Under the pieces are notes generated by a model that saw only the letters and a program-made list of their open reading frames with translations, was not told where the DNA came from and ran no database searches. A stretch of DNA of 64,000 bases from a virus, in IMG/VR virus record IMGVR_UViG_3300005683_000019, positions 65,622 to 129,621 of that record. The stretch is one strand, 5' to 3'. The position numbers and the translations under genes are program-made. This document shows, one piece after another, positions 10,503 through 63,954 of the stretch (the first letter of the stretch is position 1; each line of letters starts with the position of its first letter).

Positions 10503-11417
10503 CATGCAAGACGGGAACCACTGACGAGATCTCCCGAAAAATGATCGAAAGCTCTACACTAAATAGAGCTATGGTTTAGCACTCTAGGGACGAAAGGAAC
10601 TAGTGACCGGATAGAGTATCGCGAGATGCTTAAAGATTGGCAGCCTCCCTAGCCAATCACCAGAAATGGCCCATCTAAACAATGGTACATATCTCCACTG
10701 GAAACAGTGGTCTGATCTAAAAAATCAGATAGATTGAAGATGTAGTGGGACAGACAGAATATCTGGCTAACTGTGGGATATCTGTAGCTCCGCAAGAGTC
10801 TACCACATGCAAATACATTGAAAATCGAAGATGAATACCAAGGTATGAGGTTCGAGCTTTAGCGGGCAAGGGCGCATACGAAGATGTATAAGGTTATGGA
10901 AGCTTTGTGCACCATAAAGGTATACAACAGTGTGAGTAGTCTTAGCGGATGAAAGTACAGGAGGCGTGTGGTATATCGTATAATAAAGTTATACGATGTC
11001 ACGGTGACACGCGTCTTAGGAGGTTACAACTTGGCCTATTGGTTGGGCATTAGTCTTTTAACACTAACGTAAGGTGGTTCGACTCCATCAGTTCATAAAA
11101 ACGCAAAGTTGTCACCGGCTGTAATTGAAAATAGCGTAACACTTGACACTTCGGTGAATCAAGTCAATATAAAGCTCGCAAAGCGATATATTGTTCAAGG
11201 AAAGTTGCACGTAAGGGGTAGCTCCCTGTACTGCTCGCAAGGTAGGCGGTAGACGGAACTTGGAATAGATTACAGTGACACTAGAATTGCCACTAGTATA
11301 AAAAGGCCGCTATGGTTGATACTTCCAAGGTGGAAGTGGATAAGGGAAGAACTTTAAGATTAAGCACCTTAGAGATAATGTCCCGAAAGGCAACCGCATC
11401 ATGCTCTAATCTCAGGC
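10503..11417 (+). ncRNA. Giant structured ncRNA, GOLLD-like
   Basis: About 915 nt without ORF, many hairpins with GNRA/GCAA loops, own promoter, tRNA-cluster context; GTGAGTAGTC, GCTCGCAA, GGGTAGCTCC and terminal TAATCTCAG match my recollection of GOLLD (no covariance search run). Confidence 0.65.
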
Positions 11418-11548
11418 TTGACTAATAGATTTCTTAATGTTGCCAAGGATATGTTTCATACGATTCCTTTTGAGTTCTCCTTGTTATAGCACGCCATTCT
11501 TGGCAACATTAAGAAATTTAGATTGACACAAACACTAAATAGATTTAA

Positions 11549-15454: not shown

Positions 15455-15594
15455 GTCTCTTTGGCCGAGTGGTCTATGGCAGCAGGCTGTGGGTGTAGAG
15501 TTATAGGCTCTTTTCAGTTCAAATCTGAAATCACCAAAAGTAACCTGCCGTTGCGAAAGCACAATCGTTGGTTCGAATCCAACAGGGGACTCCA
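15455..15594 (+). tRNA. His-like tRNA (GTG) with 50-nt anticodon-loop intron and long variable arm
   Basis: GTCTCTT/AGGGGAC-T-CCA, D-arm GCCG/TGGC, stem GCAGG/CCTGC interrupted at 15493-15542. Confidence 0.75.
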
Positions 15595-53282: not shown

Positions 53283-55156
53283 GTTAAATGCCATGGACGG
53301 CTTTTAATTCCACAATATTCATCAAATGCCGCGCCAATATCTAATTGAATTAAATTTTTATCTTTAAAATCATGTATCAATCTCTTGGCAGCAAAAGAAC
53401 AACAGTACAATAATATTGTGCCGTCTTTAACACATGTTTGTATGTTTGTAAATAACTCATCATATTGGTTCCATACTTTATCAGTAGTGATAATGTGTTT
53501 AAAATTTAAATGGCTATTTAAACTTTTTAAATATTCTGGACCAACAATTATAACATCTTTATCTTTTAGGACATTCAGAAACTTATCAAGTTCTCCTGTT
53601 ATGGACCATCTGGCGAACAATCCGCCATCAAATATATCCAGGTCTTTTATATATTCGTAAATATTTTTACTTATAGCGGGCTTCTTGAATACTTCGGTTG
53701 ATATTCCTATGGGATAATCTATTTCGCTAAGTATTGGTTTTATCTTCGTATCTACGAAATTTTGCCCATCTTTATCCCATTTTACGGAATGTATTTTATA
53801 CAGATTATTATCTTTTATGTATAATAATGATATCCATTCTCCATCATTATATCTAGCCAAAGTTAATTTTTTCCCATCTTTAATTGAACCAAAAATTAGA
53901 TCTGTAATATCATCACAGACATCTATAACATTAGATTGTTCTATAAGATTAGTTCTATTGTGCAGGATATTAAAAATTTTATTATCTATTATACTCGCCG
54001 GACATATCTGACGATAGATATTTATTTTTTCCATATTGATTGAAGAATTAAGAAAATCAAAAATTTTCTGTTGCTGATTTTCATATGAAAACATTTTAAA
54101 AGAATGTTTTTGTATATTACTAGACATGACTTGCAATAAATTACGATCATCGTGTAATTTTTTTATATGTCTAATAATATTCCTATAATCATCTTTTTCC
54201 ACTATGAACAATGAATTTTCAGGGTATTGCATGTACTTATTAGTGTCATGCACATCGGTAGTAATTAATACTGCACCTTCTAGTGCTGCCTCTATACCAA
54301 GAGGCCAGCCGTTGAAAGCCTTTCCATCTTCAAGATTTAAAACAATATCTATTTTATCCCTATAGAATTTCTGCAATTGTTTTATTGGCATTGGTTCTAT
54401 AGGAATAATGTTCTTAGAATGTTTACAATTTCCTATTCCTATGAACTCAATATTATCACTTGGATACATCTCTTTATATTTTTCAGCTATTAGTTTAAAT
54501 AATGGGGCGCCCTTTCTATCTGGAGATCCTAAGTTACTAAAAGCTATTTTAATCGTTTGATTATTTTTTTTCTTTAAATGTGGAATATCATTTTTTTGTA
54601 ATTGCGTGCTACCTAATACTTCTATATTATTTCTATGATTTATATCTTGTAGCCATTTTGTTGTTATCGGATTAGTTGAAATAATTCTAGTGGCTTTATC
54701 CATTCCTTGTAAATCGCCCTTTGCGGCTAATCCTCCGCCTGGGTACAAATGTATAAATTGTTTATTTTTAGGCACTTGAAAACTTTCATTAAATTTCTTA
54801 TACATTGACAAAAATATATGATATATTATATTATATTTTTTTATATCAAATGTTGTCTGTTTTGTGAATAGATAAGAAAAATTATTATTTGTATTAAACT
54901 TTGTACCATCAATTATTTTATTGTATTTATTTAAGTAATTGAATTTACTATCAAATATAATTATATTATAATTGTTTAGTCGAAATTCCTCTTCTGTATC
55001 TTCATAATCTACATCATATTGCACACCAGCATAACTGTTAATTTTGTGGACTAAAAAATCTGTAGAGTATTCATTTATAAATGATTTACATTCTTCAGTT
55101 CTCCATTTTGCATATTTACTAGGGAACAATATATCAGTTATTAGGATCATATTCAT
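53279..55156 (-). CDS. Two-domain glycosyltransferase (GT-B-like plus GT-D-like)
   Basis: RKG..L, GWPLGIEAALEG.VLITT; C-terminal ARYNDGE...LDIGAAFD. Confidence 0.7.
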   Translation of the reverse strand: MNMILITDILFPSKYAKWRTEECKSFINEYSTDFLVHKINSYAGVQYDVDYEDTEEEFRLNNYNIIIFDSKFNYLNKYNKIIDGTKFNTNNNFSYLFTKQTTFDIKKYNIIYHIFLSMYKKFNESFQVPKNKQFIHLYPGGGLAAKGDLQGMDKATRIISTNPITTKWLQDINHRNNIEVLGSTQLQKNDIPHLKKKNNQTIKIAFSNLGSPDRKGAPLFKLIAEKYKEMYPSDNIEFIGIGNCKHSKNIIPIEPMPIKQLQKFYRDKIDIVLNLEDGKAFNGWPLGIEAALEGAVLITTDVHDTNKYMQYPENSLFIVEKDDYRNIIRHIKKLHDDRNLLQVMSSNIQKHSFKMFSYENQQQKIFDFLNSSINMEKINIYRQICPASIIDNKIFNILHNRTNLIEQSNVIDVCDDITDLIFGSIKDGKKLTLARYNDGEWISLLYIKDNNLYKIHSVKWDKDGQNFVDTKIKPILSEIDYPIGISTEVFKKPAISKNIYEYIKDLDIFDGGLFARWSITGELDKFLNVLKDKDVIIVGPEYLKSLNSHLNFKHIITTDKVWNQYDELFTNIQTCVKDGTILLYCCSFAAKRLIHDFKDKNLIQLDIGAAFDEYCGIKSRPWHLT

Positions 55157-56144
55157 TAACTATTTTAATCATATATTCTATTTGCTCGTCTGTCATTGTA
55201 TCATATATTGGCAGATTTATAATTTTGTCATAAAGATTCATTGAAAGTGGAAGTGGCAATAACGGCTTATAATACTTATTAGCTTCTATACTATTATCTC
55301 TAAAATAATCCACTTGTATATTGCTGTTAAACACTAATGGTATATTACCATAAAAAACGCCATCACTGTAGTTAAATATATTAATATTTTTGTTACATAT
55401 TCCACTTAATATATGATTTTGTATTTGCAGATGCTTTGAAATGGAATAATTATCTATATGTTGTAATATTAATGCTGCTGATACATCTGACATTTTAAAA
55501 TTAGAAGAATTTATCTTAAATTGTTTTTCTAGATTAAATCCAAATCCTATTATACGCTGTATTTCATTGTACATGTATTCATCCAACACTATAAACCCAC
55601 CTTCGCCGAAACCCAAGGTTTTAGTATGATGTAAGGAAGAAAACGATATATCGCCCATTAAACATATATTTTTTCCAAAATTATCAATGCTCATAAAAGA
55701 TGAAGCATTATCATATATTGTAAATTTATTCGAGTGTACGTTAGAAACTAATGTTCCGAATAGATTTGTTAGTATTACCCCAAAAAACGGTTCAGAATCA
55801 AAATCGTGGTTAAAACCGTATGTATTTTCATCTATATCAAATATTTCTGTGTTAGAATAATTTACAACGCATGATGGAAATGTAAAAGCTGGCGTTGCCC
55901 ACTTTACGATTTTACCATGTATCTCATTAAGATAGAACATTATCGCATGAAGGGCTGTTGTACCGTTATTAACACATAAGACTTTTTTCCCAATGGGTAA
56001 GTTTATCATTTCTGATAAACGATCTTCTAATATCTTTTTAACTGGCCCATTGTTTGTAAAATGATTTGCATTAGATGAATAATTTAAATATTTTTCAACT
56101 TTATTATAATCTATTCTTTTATTTTGTATGTAATTAATTTTCAT
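55134..56144 (-). CDS. DegT/DnrJ/EryC1/StrS PLP sugar aminotransferase
   Basis: NNGTTAL, YDNASS, SLHHTKTLGFGEGG, NFKMSD. Confidence 0.9.
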   Translation of the reverse strand: MKINYIQNKRIDYNKVEKYLNYSSNANHFTNNGPVKKILEDRLSEMINLPIGKKVLCVNNGTTALHAIMFYLNEIHGKIVKWATPAFTFPSCVVNYSNTEIFDIDENTYGFNHDFDSEPFFGVILTNLFGTLVSNVHSNKFTIYDNASSFMSIDNFGKNICLMGDISFSSLHHTKTLGFGEGGFIVLDEYMYNEIQRIIGFGFNLEKQFKINSSNFKMSDVSAALILQHIDNYSISKHLQIQNHILSGICNKNINIFNYSDGVFYGNIPLVFNSNIQVDYFRDNSIEANKYYKPLLPLPLSMNLYDKIINLPIYDTMTDEQIEYMIKIVNEYDPNN

Positions 56145-56895
56145 CTATTAGACAATGTCCTTGTATATTATCCCTATTAAACCAACTACGACTCTTGATG
56201 CCGGACCATGCATCTAATGTTGCGCCCATATCTATAGCTATTTTACTATAGTCATTTTTTAATATAACACCCAAATCTTTTGCAGTTAAACTTACACCAT
56301 ATAATACTATTTTTTGTTTTATATTTTTTATCTCTTGTAAAAGATCAATTCTGTTATTATTAACTAATGTGGTAGTAACATCACAACGCAGTATATCTGA
56401 TAATTTATTGCAATTAATTGATATATTTGGAGTTATTATATTTATTGGCTCTCCATTTATTATATTCGATAAATTATGAGGATCGCCTAATAGTTTTCCG
56501 CGAGTGATTTGATGATCGCATATCATATTTCGCGTCGTTAAACTATTAACATATGATTTCTTTATGGACCATGTAGTTGGTGAGCAATTTATTTTTTGAC
56601 ACACTTCATTATTCTTATCAATTATACCTATAATATCAGAATATTTTATCGCATTATCAATCTGTTCTTTACATTTTAATCTAAATGTATTGTAGTCTTT
56701 TTCCTTTATATCCCACAATCTGCATATTTTCTTGACCAAAAATTCCGGAGCATTGTCATTTAAAATATATATTTCTCCATCTCCTATTCTAGAGAGCGAA
56801 AATGGAATTGATTTTTTGATGCGTGTTTTCATTATTTCTACTGTATCTGATTCTGTTAAATTTGGTTCAATATATTGGTCTGAATGGACATGCAT
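56134..56895 (-). CDS. GT-D-fold-like glycosyltransferase
   Basis: SLSRIGDGE; AIDMGATLDAW. Confidence 0.7.
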   Translation of the reverse strand: MHVHSDQYIEPNLTESDTVEIMKTRIKKSIPFSLSRIGDGEIYILNDNAPEFLVKKICRLWDIKEKDYNTFRLKCKEQIDNAIKYSDIIGIIDKNNEVCQKINCSPTTWSIKKSYVNSLTTRNMICDHQITRGKLLGDPHNLSNIINGEPINIITPNISINCNKLSDILRCDVTTTLVNNNRIDLLQEIKNIKQKIVLYGVSLTAKDLGVILKNDYSKIAIDMGATLDAWSGIKSRSWFNRDNIQGHCLIDEN

Positions 56896-57646
56896 TATAC
56901 AATTTCTTTAAATCTATATTTATGTCATATTGTTCAAAACTAGCCAATATATCTTTTATGTTAGTTTGTTGCTCAATCTTATAACTATTACAATGCTCTC
57001 GACCAACAGAGGAGAAATAATCTCTAAACTTAAACCCGCCGCCTATTACTTTATCGGAATATTCTAACCATTTTGACGGAACACCATATGCATCTGCGGC
57101 AATTAAACCGTGCAATGAACTAGAAGCAATCATTTCACATTCTAGTATTCTATCTATAACATTGTTTATACCAGATAATATATCTATAACCTGAACCTCT
57201 TTTGATTTATTATGTTTAAACCATTCATTATTTTTATCTATATAATGGGGGATTATTCCCAATTTATATTTTTTTCTGATGTTTTCAGGTTTATAATATT
57301 TTGGATATAATAACGCCGGATCTCCGTAAATTTCCGGGCAATCAAATCCCTGTGATAATATTATATCTCGTGTTAATTTACCTCTAACTGCACATATATT
57401 TTTAGGTTTTTGTTTTAGTTGTCTGGAGCCTGAAAGAAAACCAGCCCCCCATATAATAGAAGATGCATCTGCTCTCTGTAGTATGCTACCTATGCAAATA
57501 TATTTTTCAATAGAATTCCCATGATTTATCCAAACTACTCTTTTTTTCGAGATTTTTTCTATCAAAATCTTGTTAAGCGCATCGCCCCAATTATTTCGTT
57601 CAGCCGAATTCACCGGATTGAACCAGAAAGCATTAATAGTATTCAT
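56867..57646 (-). CDS. Polysaccharide pyruvyl transferase family protein
   Basis: NWGD, GSIL, AVRG.LT, GDPALL, SSSLHGLIAADAYGVP. Confidence 0.9.
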   Translation of the reverse strand: MNTINAFWFNPVNSAERNNWGDALNKILIEKISKKRVVWINHGNSIEKYICIGSILQRADASSIIWGAGFLSGSRQLKQKPKNICAVRGKLTRDIILSQGFDCPEIYGDPALLYPKYYKPENIRKKYKLGIIPHYIDKNNEWFKHNKSKEVQVIDILSGINNVIDRILECEMIASSSLHGLIAADAYGVPSKWLEYSDKVIGGGFKFRDYFSSVGREHCNSYKIEQQTNIKDILASFEQYDINIDLKKLYNACPFRPIY

Positions 57647-62730: not shown

Positions 62731-63393
62731 TCATTTTTTCTTTTTTGACTTACTATCTAAAGCTGTAAGTTTTTCTTCTTCTTTTTGTATGTTTGCTTGA
62801 CGCTCTTCAAGAATTTTATTGCGGTGATTTAATCTTTCTAGTACGTCGTCGCTATCTAGCCAAATATCTTTACCTTCAAGAACATCTTTTATTTCCGAGT
62901 CTTCTAAAAATCCTGCATATAGATCGTAAGTAAGCTCTTGGAACCAGTCCTTTGCGTGAAGAACTCGCGCCCATATTTCATTTCCTTTTCCTATAACGCC
63001 TTCAGAATAATTATGTATCATAAAACTACAATGATCATTGATAATATATTCATGTCCTGCTAGAAATATTAGAGTGGCCGCCGAACATACTTGTCCATCG
63101 ATAGACGTTACTACAGTGGCCCTAGATGACTTTATAGCATTAATAATTTGTATAGTGATATTTAAATCACCACCTGGACAATTCAAGTAAATTATAACTC
63201 TATCATGCTCTTCTGCTGTTTTCAATGTGTTGATTAAATCAAGGTATGCTCTATAATCTTCTATCTCTGAATTTATATAAAAATGATATATGTTGACTGG
63301 AATTGTCTGTTTAAAACATTTTATTGAAACTGGATCTTGCTGTGGAAACATTATTACTTCATGTGATGCCGGAAAGTCATTTTTCTTCGTCAT
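62731..63393 (-). CDS. ClpP-like serine protease
   Basis: IYLNCPGG, CSAATLIFLAG, MIHNYS; start corrected to MTKK. Confidence 0.85.
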   Translation of the reverse strand: MTKKNDFPASHEVIMFPQQDPVSIKCFKQTIPVNIYHFYINSEIEDYRAYLDLINTLKTAEEHDRVIIYLNCPGGDLNITIQIINAIKSSRATVVTSIDGQVCSAATLIFLAGHEYIINDHCSFMIHNYSEGVIGKGNEIWARVLHAKDWFQELTYDLYAGFLEDSEIKDVLEGKDIWLDSDDVLERLNHRNKILEERQANIQKEEEKLTALDSKSKKKK

Positions 63394-63447
63394 TATTTTT
63401 TCCCTTTTGACCAACGTATTTATTACAGAATCAGAAAGATGCAAAAG

Positions 63448-63477
63448 AAAAATGGCAGCCAAAAGCTGCCATTTTTT
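63448..63477 (-). terminator. tmRNA terminator
   Basis: AAAAATGGCAGC-loop-GCTGCCATTTTT. Confidence 0.75.
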
Positions 63478-63743
63478 AATCAATTGGATAATAAGGATGA
63501 TCAGTCCCCAATGGTTCATGCCGCTAGGGCAGTTTCACCATAAAATGCGTCATTGCTTGCATTTATATTTTTTATGCTGATTAGGTCAGTCATCTATCCA
63601 GTTGTCCATTTGTTTACTCTTCTTCCCGTCGAAGCCTTGCCGACCCATCAACAGAAAACTTAATACACAAATTTTCTCTTGGTGGATCGGACGGGAATCG
63701 AACCCGTGTCCGCGAAGCCTTTCGACTTACTTCATACAACCAT
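63478..63743 (-). ncRNA. ssrA: Two-piece (circularly permuted) tmRNA
   Basis: Acceptor piece ...GGACACGGGTTCGATTCCCGTCCGATCC-ACCA precedes coding piece GGGTCGG...TTCGACGGG; G3:U70; tag ASNDAFYGETALAA-stop at 63516-63560. Confidence 0.9.
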
Positions 63744-63747
63744 ATTT

Positions 63748-63954
63748 TTATTTATAACTATTAATCTTATCTTCTAAACGTGCCATTTTTAACTGAATTT
63801 GTTCATAAACTTTATCATAACCAAAAATTGTAGCCATTTGTTCCATCATGATGATCACATCTGATATTTCACTAATCCAATCTTCGACAGTATCCCTATT
63901 TTGAGCTTTTCTTCCCACTAAAGTTAGAAACTCTCCACATTCTCCAACCGCCAT
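63748..63954 (-). CDS. MazG-like nucleotide pyrophosphohydrolase (5' end uncertain)
   Basis: ECGE...EISDV; homology-like text WGVADQIN continues upstream to an in-frame TAA. Confidence 0.6.
   Translation of the reverse strand: MAVGECGEFLTLVGRKAQNRDTVEDWISEISDVIIMMEQMATIFGYDKVYEQIQLKMARLEDKINSYK

Follow-up and report, generated by a model that had tools for sequence, protein, structure and literature searches.

A circularly permuted, beta-type tmRNA gene next to a ClpP-like protease gene in a large, T4-related, uncultured phage

Introduction

tmRNA is the RNA that frees stalled ribosomes and tags unfinished proteins for destruction. We wanted to know whether a stretch of viral DNA that a first-pass annotation, made from the sequence alone, had read as carrying a phage-encoded two-piece (permuted) tmRNA holds a functional gene of the phage, and what this gene and its neighbors reveal about the virus. 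The window (the whole stretch that was analyzed, 64 kb) is the last part of a 129,621-bp IMG/VR viral record that is an estimated ~60% complete (GC 36.9%), and the tmRNA gene lies 228 nt from the contig end.

Results

A permuted tmRNA gene is identified by two detectors

ARAGORN, with which the first-pass annotation had proposed a comparison, called a permuted tmRNA ('tmRNA*') at 63425-63772 (-) with the tag ASNDAFYGETALAA. Two Rfam models also matched, RF04321 (tmRNA_permuted) with 118.2 bits (cut-off 47; E 1.9e-22) over the full model (1-213) at 63741-63516, and RF01850 (beta_tmRNA) with 93.9 bits (cut-off 84; E 3.9e-27) over model positions 1-331 at 63787-63446. The beta assignment denotes the best Rfam match after clan competition, ~10 bits over the RF01850 gathering score. 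The match to a permuted tmRNA is far beyond chance and, with two independent detectors and covariation among 16 phage homologues (described below), the reading of the locus as a phage-encoded, circularly permuted two-piece tmRNA holds. The gene consists of the following parts.

63680-63741 (-), acceptor piece, 62 nt (ARAGORN 3' tRNA domain at 63718-63680; RF04321 alignment)
63647-63679 (-), intervening segment, 33 nt, a hairpin (sequence; minimum free energy (MFE) fold)
63446-63646 (-), coding piece, ~200 nt, with G1 at 63646 (ARAGORN 5' tRNA domain at 63646-63621; RF01850 alignment)

The order is permuted in that the 3' half of the tRNA-like domain (T arm, acceptor strand, and CCA) lies upstream of the 5' half. 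The acceptor piece holds the 3' strand of helix 2, the T arm, the 3' strand of the acceptor stem, the discriminator A, and an encoded CCA (63682-63680), and the coding piece runs from the GGGUCGG acceptor strand through the D-loop analogue, the 5' strand of helix 2, PK1, the tag frame, and PK2 to the terminal hairpin. As read from the sequence and paired by ARAGORN, GGGUCGG and CCGAUCC form a 7-bp acceptor stem with G3:U70, which is the alanine identity pair, followed by the discriminator A and the CCA end. The intervening segment presumably closes the acceptor stem in the precursor and is absent from the mature RNA.

On direct reading, all of the landmarks claimed earlier (the CCA end at 63680, G1 at 63646, the 33-nt intervening hairpin, G3:U70, and ATAAAT-GCA) are where they had been placed. 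The gene is also present within the extent first assigned to it, 63478-63743, but the lower end of that extent falls short, because the terminator spans 63476-63448 and the gene thus reaches ~30 nt past 63478. Further, it had been predicted that tRNA scanners would miscall the gene. Neither ARAGORN nor the Rfam tRNA model called a tRNA here, but public records of related phages do give the homologous gene as 'tRNA-OTHER', as a 'hypothetical protein', or without any label.

The gene is bounded by a promoter-like box and a terminator

Two elements mark the ends of the gene.

63749-63756 (-), TATAAATA box, an exact match to the T4 late-promoter consensus, ending 7 nt before the acceptor piece begins
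63448-63476 (-), intrinsic terminator with a 13-bp stem and a T tract (terminator scan)

The TATAAATA motif occurs 14 times in the window compared with 8.8 ± 2.8 expected, which is no significant enrichment, and a scan of the same strand upstream of the tmRNA found no σ70-like promoter. Similar TAAATA boxes stand 5-7 nt ahead of the tmRNA in phage XacN1 and in two IMG/VR loci (L038 and L047). We infer that the box would work as a late-type promoter. The terminator, which matches the terminal hairpin of RF01850, probably doubles as the 3' hairpin of the coding piece. When the precursor was folded, the MFE was -92 kcal/mol (z -4.1), and the fold contained the acceptor stem capped by the intervening hairpin, as well as the outer helix 2 and the terminator; the intervening hairpins of the homologues measure 28-118 nt.

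The two pieces are linked by conserved helices

Homologues were collected from the cultured Stenotrophomonas phages DLP_6 and Marzo, the Xanthomonas phages XacN1 and Xoo-sp13, and IMG/VR, where a search with two DNA patterns returned 49 and 56 contigs. ARAGORN called a permuted tmRNA at 96 of the 103 IMG/VR loci. No near-identical relative came to light: a megablast search of 24 kb against cultured phages gave no match, nor did a search of IMG/VR for the exact T-arm/acceptor/G1 pattern, and no related loci were found via the ClpP protein of the window.

Sixteen phage tmRNAs were aligned with MAFFT for the covariation analysis. The overall covariation in this 16-sequence alignment was 0.429 compared with 0.150 in shuffles, a value reached by none of 500 shuffles, and slid controls on the same alignment all scored well below it. 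The outer helix 2, formed by GGUUGU (63741-63736) and ACAACU (63605-63600), was 91.7% paired, with compensatory changes at 5 of its 6 pairs. The inner helix 2 (P2a) was 99% paired in the same alignment, likewise with five of six pairs compensatory, and the T arm was paired in 100% of cases across the 16 homologues. The middle of helix 2 in the window copy is without standard pairs, two of them flagged by Infernal. The acceptor stem was 51.8% paired on the MAFFT alignment, a low figure that results from a one-column MAFFT shift at the shorter D-loop region of the window and not from a real defect, since ARAGORN finds the full 7 bp in every sequence. The pairing between the pieces that had first been suggested, ATGGTT with AACCAT, lacks conservation and is rejected; 44.9% of its cells are paired, which does not exceed the shuffles. 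We conclude that the two pieces are held together by the acceptor stem and a covarying helix 2.

A conserved pseudoknot and a candidate PK1 in a compact RNA

Because of the small size of the coding piece, the first-pass annotation had seen little room in it for pseudoknots. One conserved pseudoknot and one candidate were nevertheless located.

63477-63510 (-), H-type pseudoknot following the tag (script search, with the register compared by eye among relatives)
63577-63596 (-), candidate PK1, UAG/CUA plus CUGA/UCAG, upstream of the resume codon (script search)

In the post-tag pseudoknot, S1 is formed by UGGGGA (63510-63505) and UCCUUA (63497-63492), and S2 is formed by UGAUCA (63503-63498) and UGAUUA (63482-63477). 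Its counterpart in RF01850 is the first 3' hairpin, and 12 of 14 relatives form it from different sequences but in the same register, where compensatory examples of S1 include CACAGC/GCUGUG (DLP_6), ACAGGA/UCCUGU (Marzo), and CCAAG/CUUGG (XacN1). The PK1 candidate is weak in the window copy (3 + 4 bp; score 17 compared with 15.8 ± 4.4 in shuffles) and stronger at homologous positions in the relatives (4-5 bp plus 3-4 bp). A small PK1 in the window copy is plausible. Given the conserved pseudoknot after the tag, the view that pseudoknots hardly fit does not stand. The RNA is, as predicted, compact (~62 + 200 nt), yet it has room for pseudoknots.

The weakness of PK1, the noncanonical middle of helix 2, and a beta score near the threshold could also be expected of a decaying, non-functional copy from a bacterium or another phage. 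We regard decay as very improbable, as all of the defining elements are intact, the tag frame is open and ends canonically, the helices covary with those of the homologues instead of gathering mismatches, and the gene comes with a promoter-like box and a terminator of its own.

The tag reading frame is open and its tag belongs to a family seen in viral contigs

Translation of the tag would use the following frame.

63516-63560 (-), tag frame, with the resume codon GCA at 63560-63558 and the stop codon TGA at 63518-63516 (ARAGORN)

The resume context is UAUAAAU-GCA (ARAGORN consensus tataaatGCA). The tag ASNDAFYGETALAA has 14 residues, ends in ALAA before the stop codon, and is not in the internal tag list of ARAGORN. 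A 21-nt stretch of the tag, AATGACGCATTTTATGGTGAA, is identical in viral contigs bearing the tag ANDAFYGEDRLAA, and homologous tags are found in ~100 viral contigs. When metagenome contigs were searched for the 21-nt string, only two contigs, both already known, were matched, and it was found in none of the bacterial genomes searched (185,579 species genomes).

Such a frame also bears on whether the RNA tags proteins at all or serves mainly as a decoy or inhibitor, which would titrate host SmpB or compete with the host tmRNA and so block or redirect trans-translation in the host. An RNA of mycobacteriophage DS6A that consists of the TLD only does inhibit endogenous tmRNA (PMC4131195, PMC11915505), and no smpB is encoded in the available 129.6 kb of the phage record. 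However, a pure decoy would need neither a tag frame with its resume context and ALAA end nor the two pseudoknot regions, all of which are present here and conserved across diverged homologues. We therefore give this explanation a slim chance and favor a tmRNA that tags.

The gene belongs to a large T4-related phage

We examined the surroundings of the gene, which include an ORF on its upstream side.

63748-63954 (-), MazG-like ORF, 68 aa (phrog_2245, with only the C-terminal third matched, profile positions 140-206 of 218)

This ORF, of the NTP pyrophosphohydrolase family, is a miniature form or a remnant, and the contig ends 46 nt beyond it. Downstream of the tmRNA are genes for ClpP, primase, and rIIA, and elsewhere the window encodes ribonucleotide reductase and RNA ligases, with 20 tRNA genes and a GOLLD RNA within the 64 kb (ARAGORN, Rfam). 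The best matches of ClpP, primase, and rIIA (33-49% amino acid identity) are in the Xanthomonas and Stenotrophomonas jumbo phages XacN1, Xoo-sp13, CM1, and RAS14, and the ClpP-primase order is common to the window and the XacN1-type jumbo phages. We conclude that the carrier is a large, T4-related, uncultured phage whose closest cultured relatives are XacN1, Xoo-sp13, CM1, and RAS14.

Other features of the window were also recorded. The GOLLD RNA (RF02032, 201.8 bits) lies at 10961-11418 (+), inside the tRNA cluster, and encloses a tRNA-like match (11028-11093). At 15455-15591, the Rfam tRNA model matched an interrupted tRNA. Several sugar-modification genes, uncommon cargo in a phage replication region, follow one another at 55134-57646 (-) in DNA of 30% GC; their products are a DegT-type aminotransferase, a GT-D-like glycosyltransferase, and a polysaccharide pyruvyl transferase.

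With only 228 nt between the gene and the contig end, and with tmRNA genes frequently serving as integration targets (ssrA is a known site, PMC4383910), the locus could conceivably be the ssrA of the host at a prophage attachment site. Several observations make this exceedingly improbable. The phage-type MazG-like ORF lies beyond the gene toward the contig end on the same strand, and the downstream genes are syntenic with those of lytic jumbo phages; phage genes on both sides indicate that the tmRNA belongs to the phage and not to the attachment site of a host. In addition, the late-type box precedes the gene, the local GC content of 33% equals that of the surrounding phage DNA, and both the tag string and the signature described next were absent from the 185,579 bacterial species genomes, the signature being present in viral contigs.

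The tmRNA subfamily may be restricted to viruses, and its type gives no host assignment

We derived a signature of the subfamily, GTATGANG-N7-AAAGG-N6-GGAC-NN-GGGTTCGATTCCC, which matched 56 IMG/VR contigs, in many of which the gene sits deep inside contigs of 100 kb or more, and 0 of 185,579 GTDB bacterial and archaeal species genomes in a scan that had no positive control. From this distribution, the tmRNA subfamily with GUAUGAAG in helix 2 may, provisionally, circulate only among viruses. Separately, we note that the conserved GUAUGAAG on the 5' strand of helix 2 faces a conserved (G)AGUA (63736-63700 (-); 56 IMG/VR loci, L068-L121), an arrangement that resembles a loop-E (bulged-G) motif.

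The permuted form had been taken as a hint of an alpha-, beta-, or cyanobacterial host. This hint fails, as the closest homologues with an annotation come from phages that infect Stenotrophomonas and Xanthomonas (Xanthomonadaceae), a family whose members are described as having a one-piece tmRNA. The beta-type RNA is here carried by a phage and not by one of the Betaproteobacteria. Because a beta-type RNA is found in a phage, its nearest annotated homologues are in Xanthomonadaceae phages, and the signature matched no GTDB species genome, the type gives no host assignment, and the permuted gene form is unusable for guessing the host of a phage. A phage with a two-piece ssrA that mismatches the lineage of its host has already been documented (Buchholz et al., PMC9004378).

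A ClpP-like gene follows the tmRNA

The first gene downstream of the terminator is the following.

62731-63393 (-), ClpP-like serine protease gene, 220 aa, ATG at 63393, 54 nt after the terminator

Its product matches phrog_1827 ('ATP-dependent protease'; E 3.5e-60) and the Pfam family CLP_protease (E 8.6e-15), and alignment with solved ClpP structures shows that it keeps the motifs of the catalytic Ser (GQVCSAA) and His (MIHNY). Ahead of the gene lie a separate AATAAATA box (63424-63417) and an AAGGGA ribosome-binding site. The phage record encodes no other ClpP, and no ClpX is encoded in the available 130 kb.

At 22 of 59 viral loci, a stand-alone ClpP gene (~185-205 aa, PF00574) follows the tmRNA within 3 kb and in the same orientation, the denominator being the fetched IMG/VR loci with ≥3 kb of downstream sequence. 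The loci with ClpP after the tmRNA are listed below.

L032-L037, L044, L049, L069, L074-L079, L081, L084, L088
Further loci: L091, L094-L096, L105, L108, L114, L115, L119

The usual order in those loci is tmRNA, small ORFs, a cell-wall hydrolase (PF07486), ClpP, and then gp32 or gp59. Judged from this gene order, the tmRNA-ClpP neighborhood is a replication module and not a head module. The order of tmRNA and then ClpP persists even though the tmRNAs share ~55-70% nucleotide identity and the ClpPs 30-39% amino acid identity. Because T4-related phages generally keep their gene order and the contigs are interrelated, the 22 of 59 loci show a conserved module and not repeated independent assembly. 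We found no paper describing the tmRNA-ClpP linkage, and this order is the only part of our observations that may be undescribed.

Discussion

Proposed function of the phage tmRNA and its ClpP neighbor

Taking the detector matches, covariation, and open tag frame together, we believe that the locus is very probably a functional ssrA gene, circularly permuted and of the beta type, of a large T4-related uncultured phage. Late transcription would run from the TATAAATA box, which lies a few bases ahead of the acceptor piece, to the terminator. Host RNase P would then cut 5' of G1, and 3' trimming to the CCA would remove the 33-nt hairpin, to yield a 62-nt acceptor piece and a ~200-nt coding piece joined by the 7-bp acceptor stem and helix 2. 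The RNA would be charged by host AlaRS and delivered by host SmpB and EF-Tu to ribosomes stalled on broken or non-stop mRNAs; because the 129.6 kb contain no smpB, activity would depend on the host SmpB accepting the RNA. Translation would resume on the tag frame, the ribosome would be released, and the ASNDAFYGETALAA-tagged, ALAA-ended product would pass to a protease of the ClpX/ClpA-ClpP type, of which the downstream ClpP-like gene may supply the proteolytic subunit. The likely benefit to the phage is that ribosomes are kept available late in infection, while host and phage mRNAs are cut.

It is possible, though doubtful, that the tmRNA and ClpP form a phage-borne 'tag-and-degrade' module that works with host SmpB and a host unfoldase. 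Were this so, the phage would supply both the RNA that writes the degron and the proteolytic subunit that destroys the tagged products, and a coupling of the two would mean that large phages take over the whole pathway of ribosome rescue and clean-up during infection.

Comparison with known systems

We compared the gene with the bacterial beta-type structure as given by the Rfam model and PMC11915505. The likeness to RF01850 extends over the full model length, with acceptor piece, intervening segment, and coding piece in the same gene order, and includes the tRNA-like domain, the helix 2 link, the tag frame, a post-tag hairpin with a CCUUnUUAnCCAA loop, and the terminal hairpin. The two differ in the 5' strand of helix 2, which here has GUAUGAAG...AAAGG, whereas the bacterial consensus is GUauuCCggcaaccuGgAGGC.

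The Stenotrophomonas and Xanthomonas phages (DLP_6, the Marzo/Mendera/YB07 group, XacN1, and Xoo-sp13) also have beta-type permuted tmRNAs, which score 65.7-136.8 bits (ARAGORN, Rfam) and carry tags of the same family as ASNDAFYGETALAA, namely ANDDSFAPMAIAA, ANDDSYTVRIAA, and ANANTFDYALAA. Over the tRNA-like domain and helix 2, they are 68-72% identical to the window tmRNA, which has thus diverged in sequence from the cultured-phage homologues, in a genome with a GC content of 36.9%. The settings differ as well: the Marzo tmRNA is preceded by a tRNA, whereas that of the window is preceded by a promoter box, and in XacN1 and Xoo-sp13 the tmRNA is tens of kilobases from ClpP, whereas in the window the two adjoin.

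Among more distant phages, the Methylophilales phage Melnitz has a two-piece ssrA, described in a study that counted 53 two-piece tmRNA structures in a set of 18,146 genomes of phages (Buchholz et al. 2022, PMC9004378). Like Melnitz and the pelagimyophages, the window carries a complete, permuted ssrA in a T4-related genome without smpB (PMC9004378). However, the Melnitz ssrA is reported to be of the alphaproteobacterial type and to come with a glutamine riboswitch (PMC9004378), whereas that of the window is of the beta type and Rfam found no riboswitch; ClpP is not mentioned in the Melnitz paper (PMC9004378). Listings of phage tmRNAs go back to the Bxz1-type mycobacteriophages (PMC4131195). 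Those of the Bxz1 group and of Bacillus phage G resemble the present one in belonging to tRNA-rich large phages but are one-piece and unpermuted (PMC4131195). The 2025 tmRNA database holds 79 unique phage sequences (PMC11915505).

In GenBank, the homologues of Marzo, Yut2/3, and Bhz51 are annotated as tmRNA or ssrA. The homologue is unannotated, labeled 'tRNA-OTHER', or placed under a 'hypothetical protein' CDS in KU682439.2 (DLP_6), OL702939.1/NC_070951.1 (vB_SmaM_Ps15), and ON758385.1 (BUDD), and the same labeling problem affects the records of YB07, BUCT608, IME-SM1, Mendera, and Moby. In Marzo, ARAGORN also makes a spurious, overlapping one-piece tmRNA call (tag APDLGSDASA). Because homologues in GenBank are often unlabeled, called 'tRNA-OTHER', or overlaid with a hypothetical protein, the divergent window tmRNA is useful for annotation. 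Overall, we conclude that the two-piece tmRNA of phages is a kind already published, to which the window gene is a divergent addition with a new tag.
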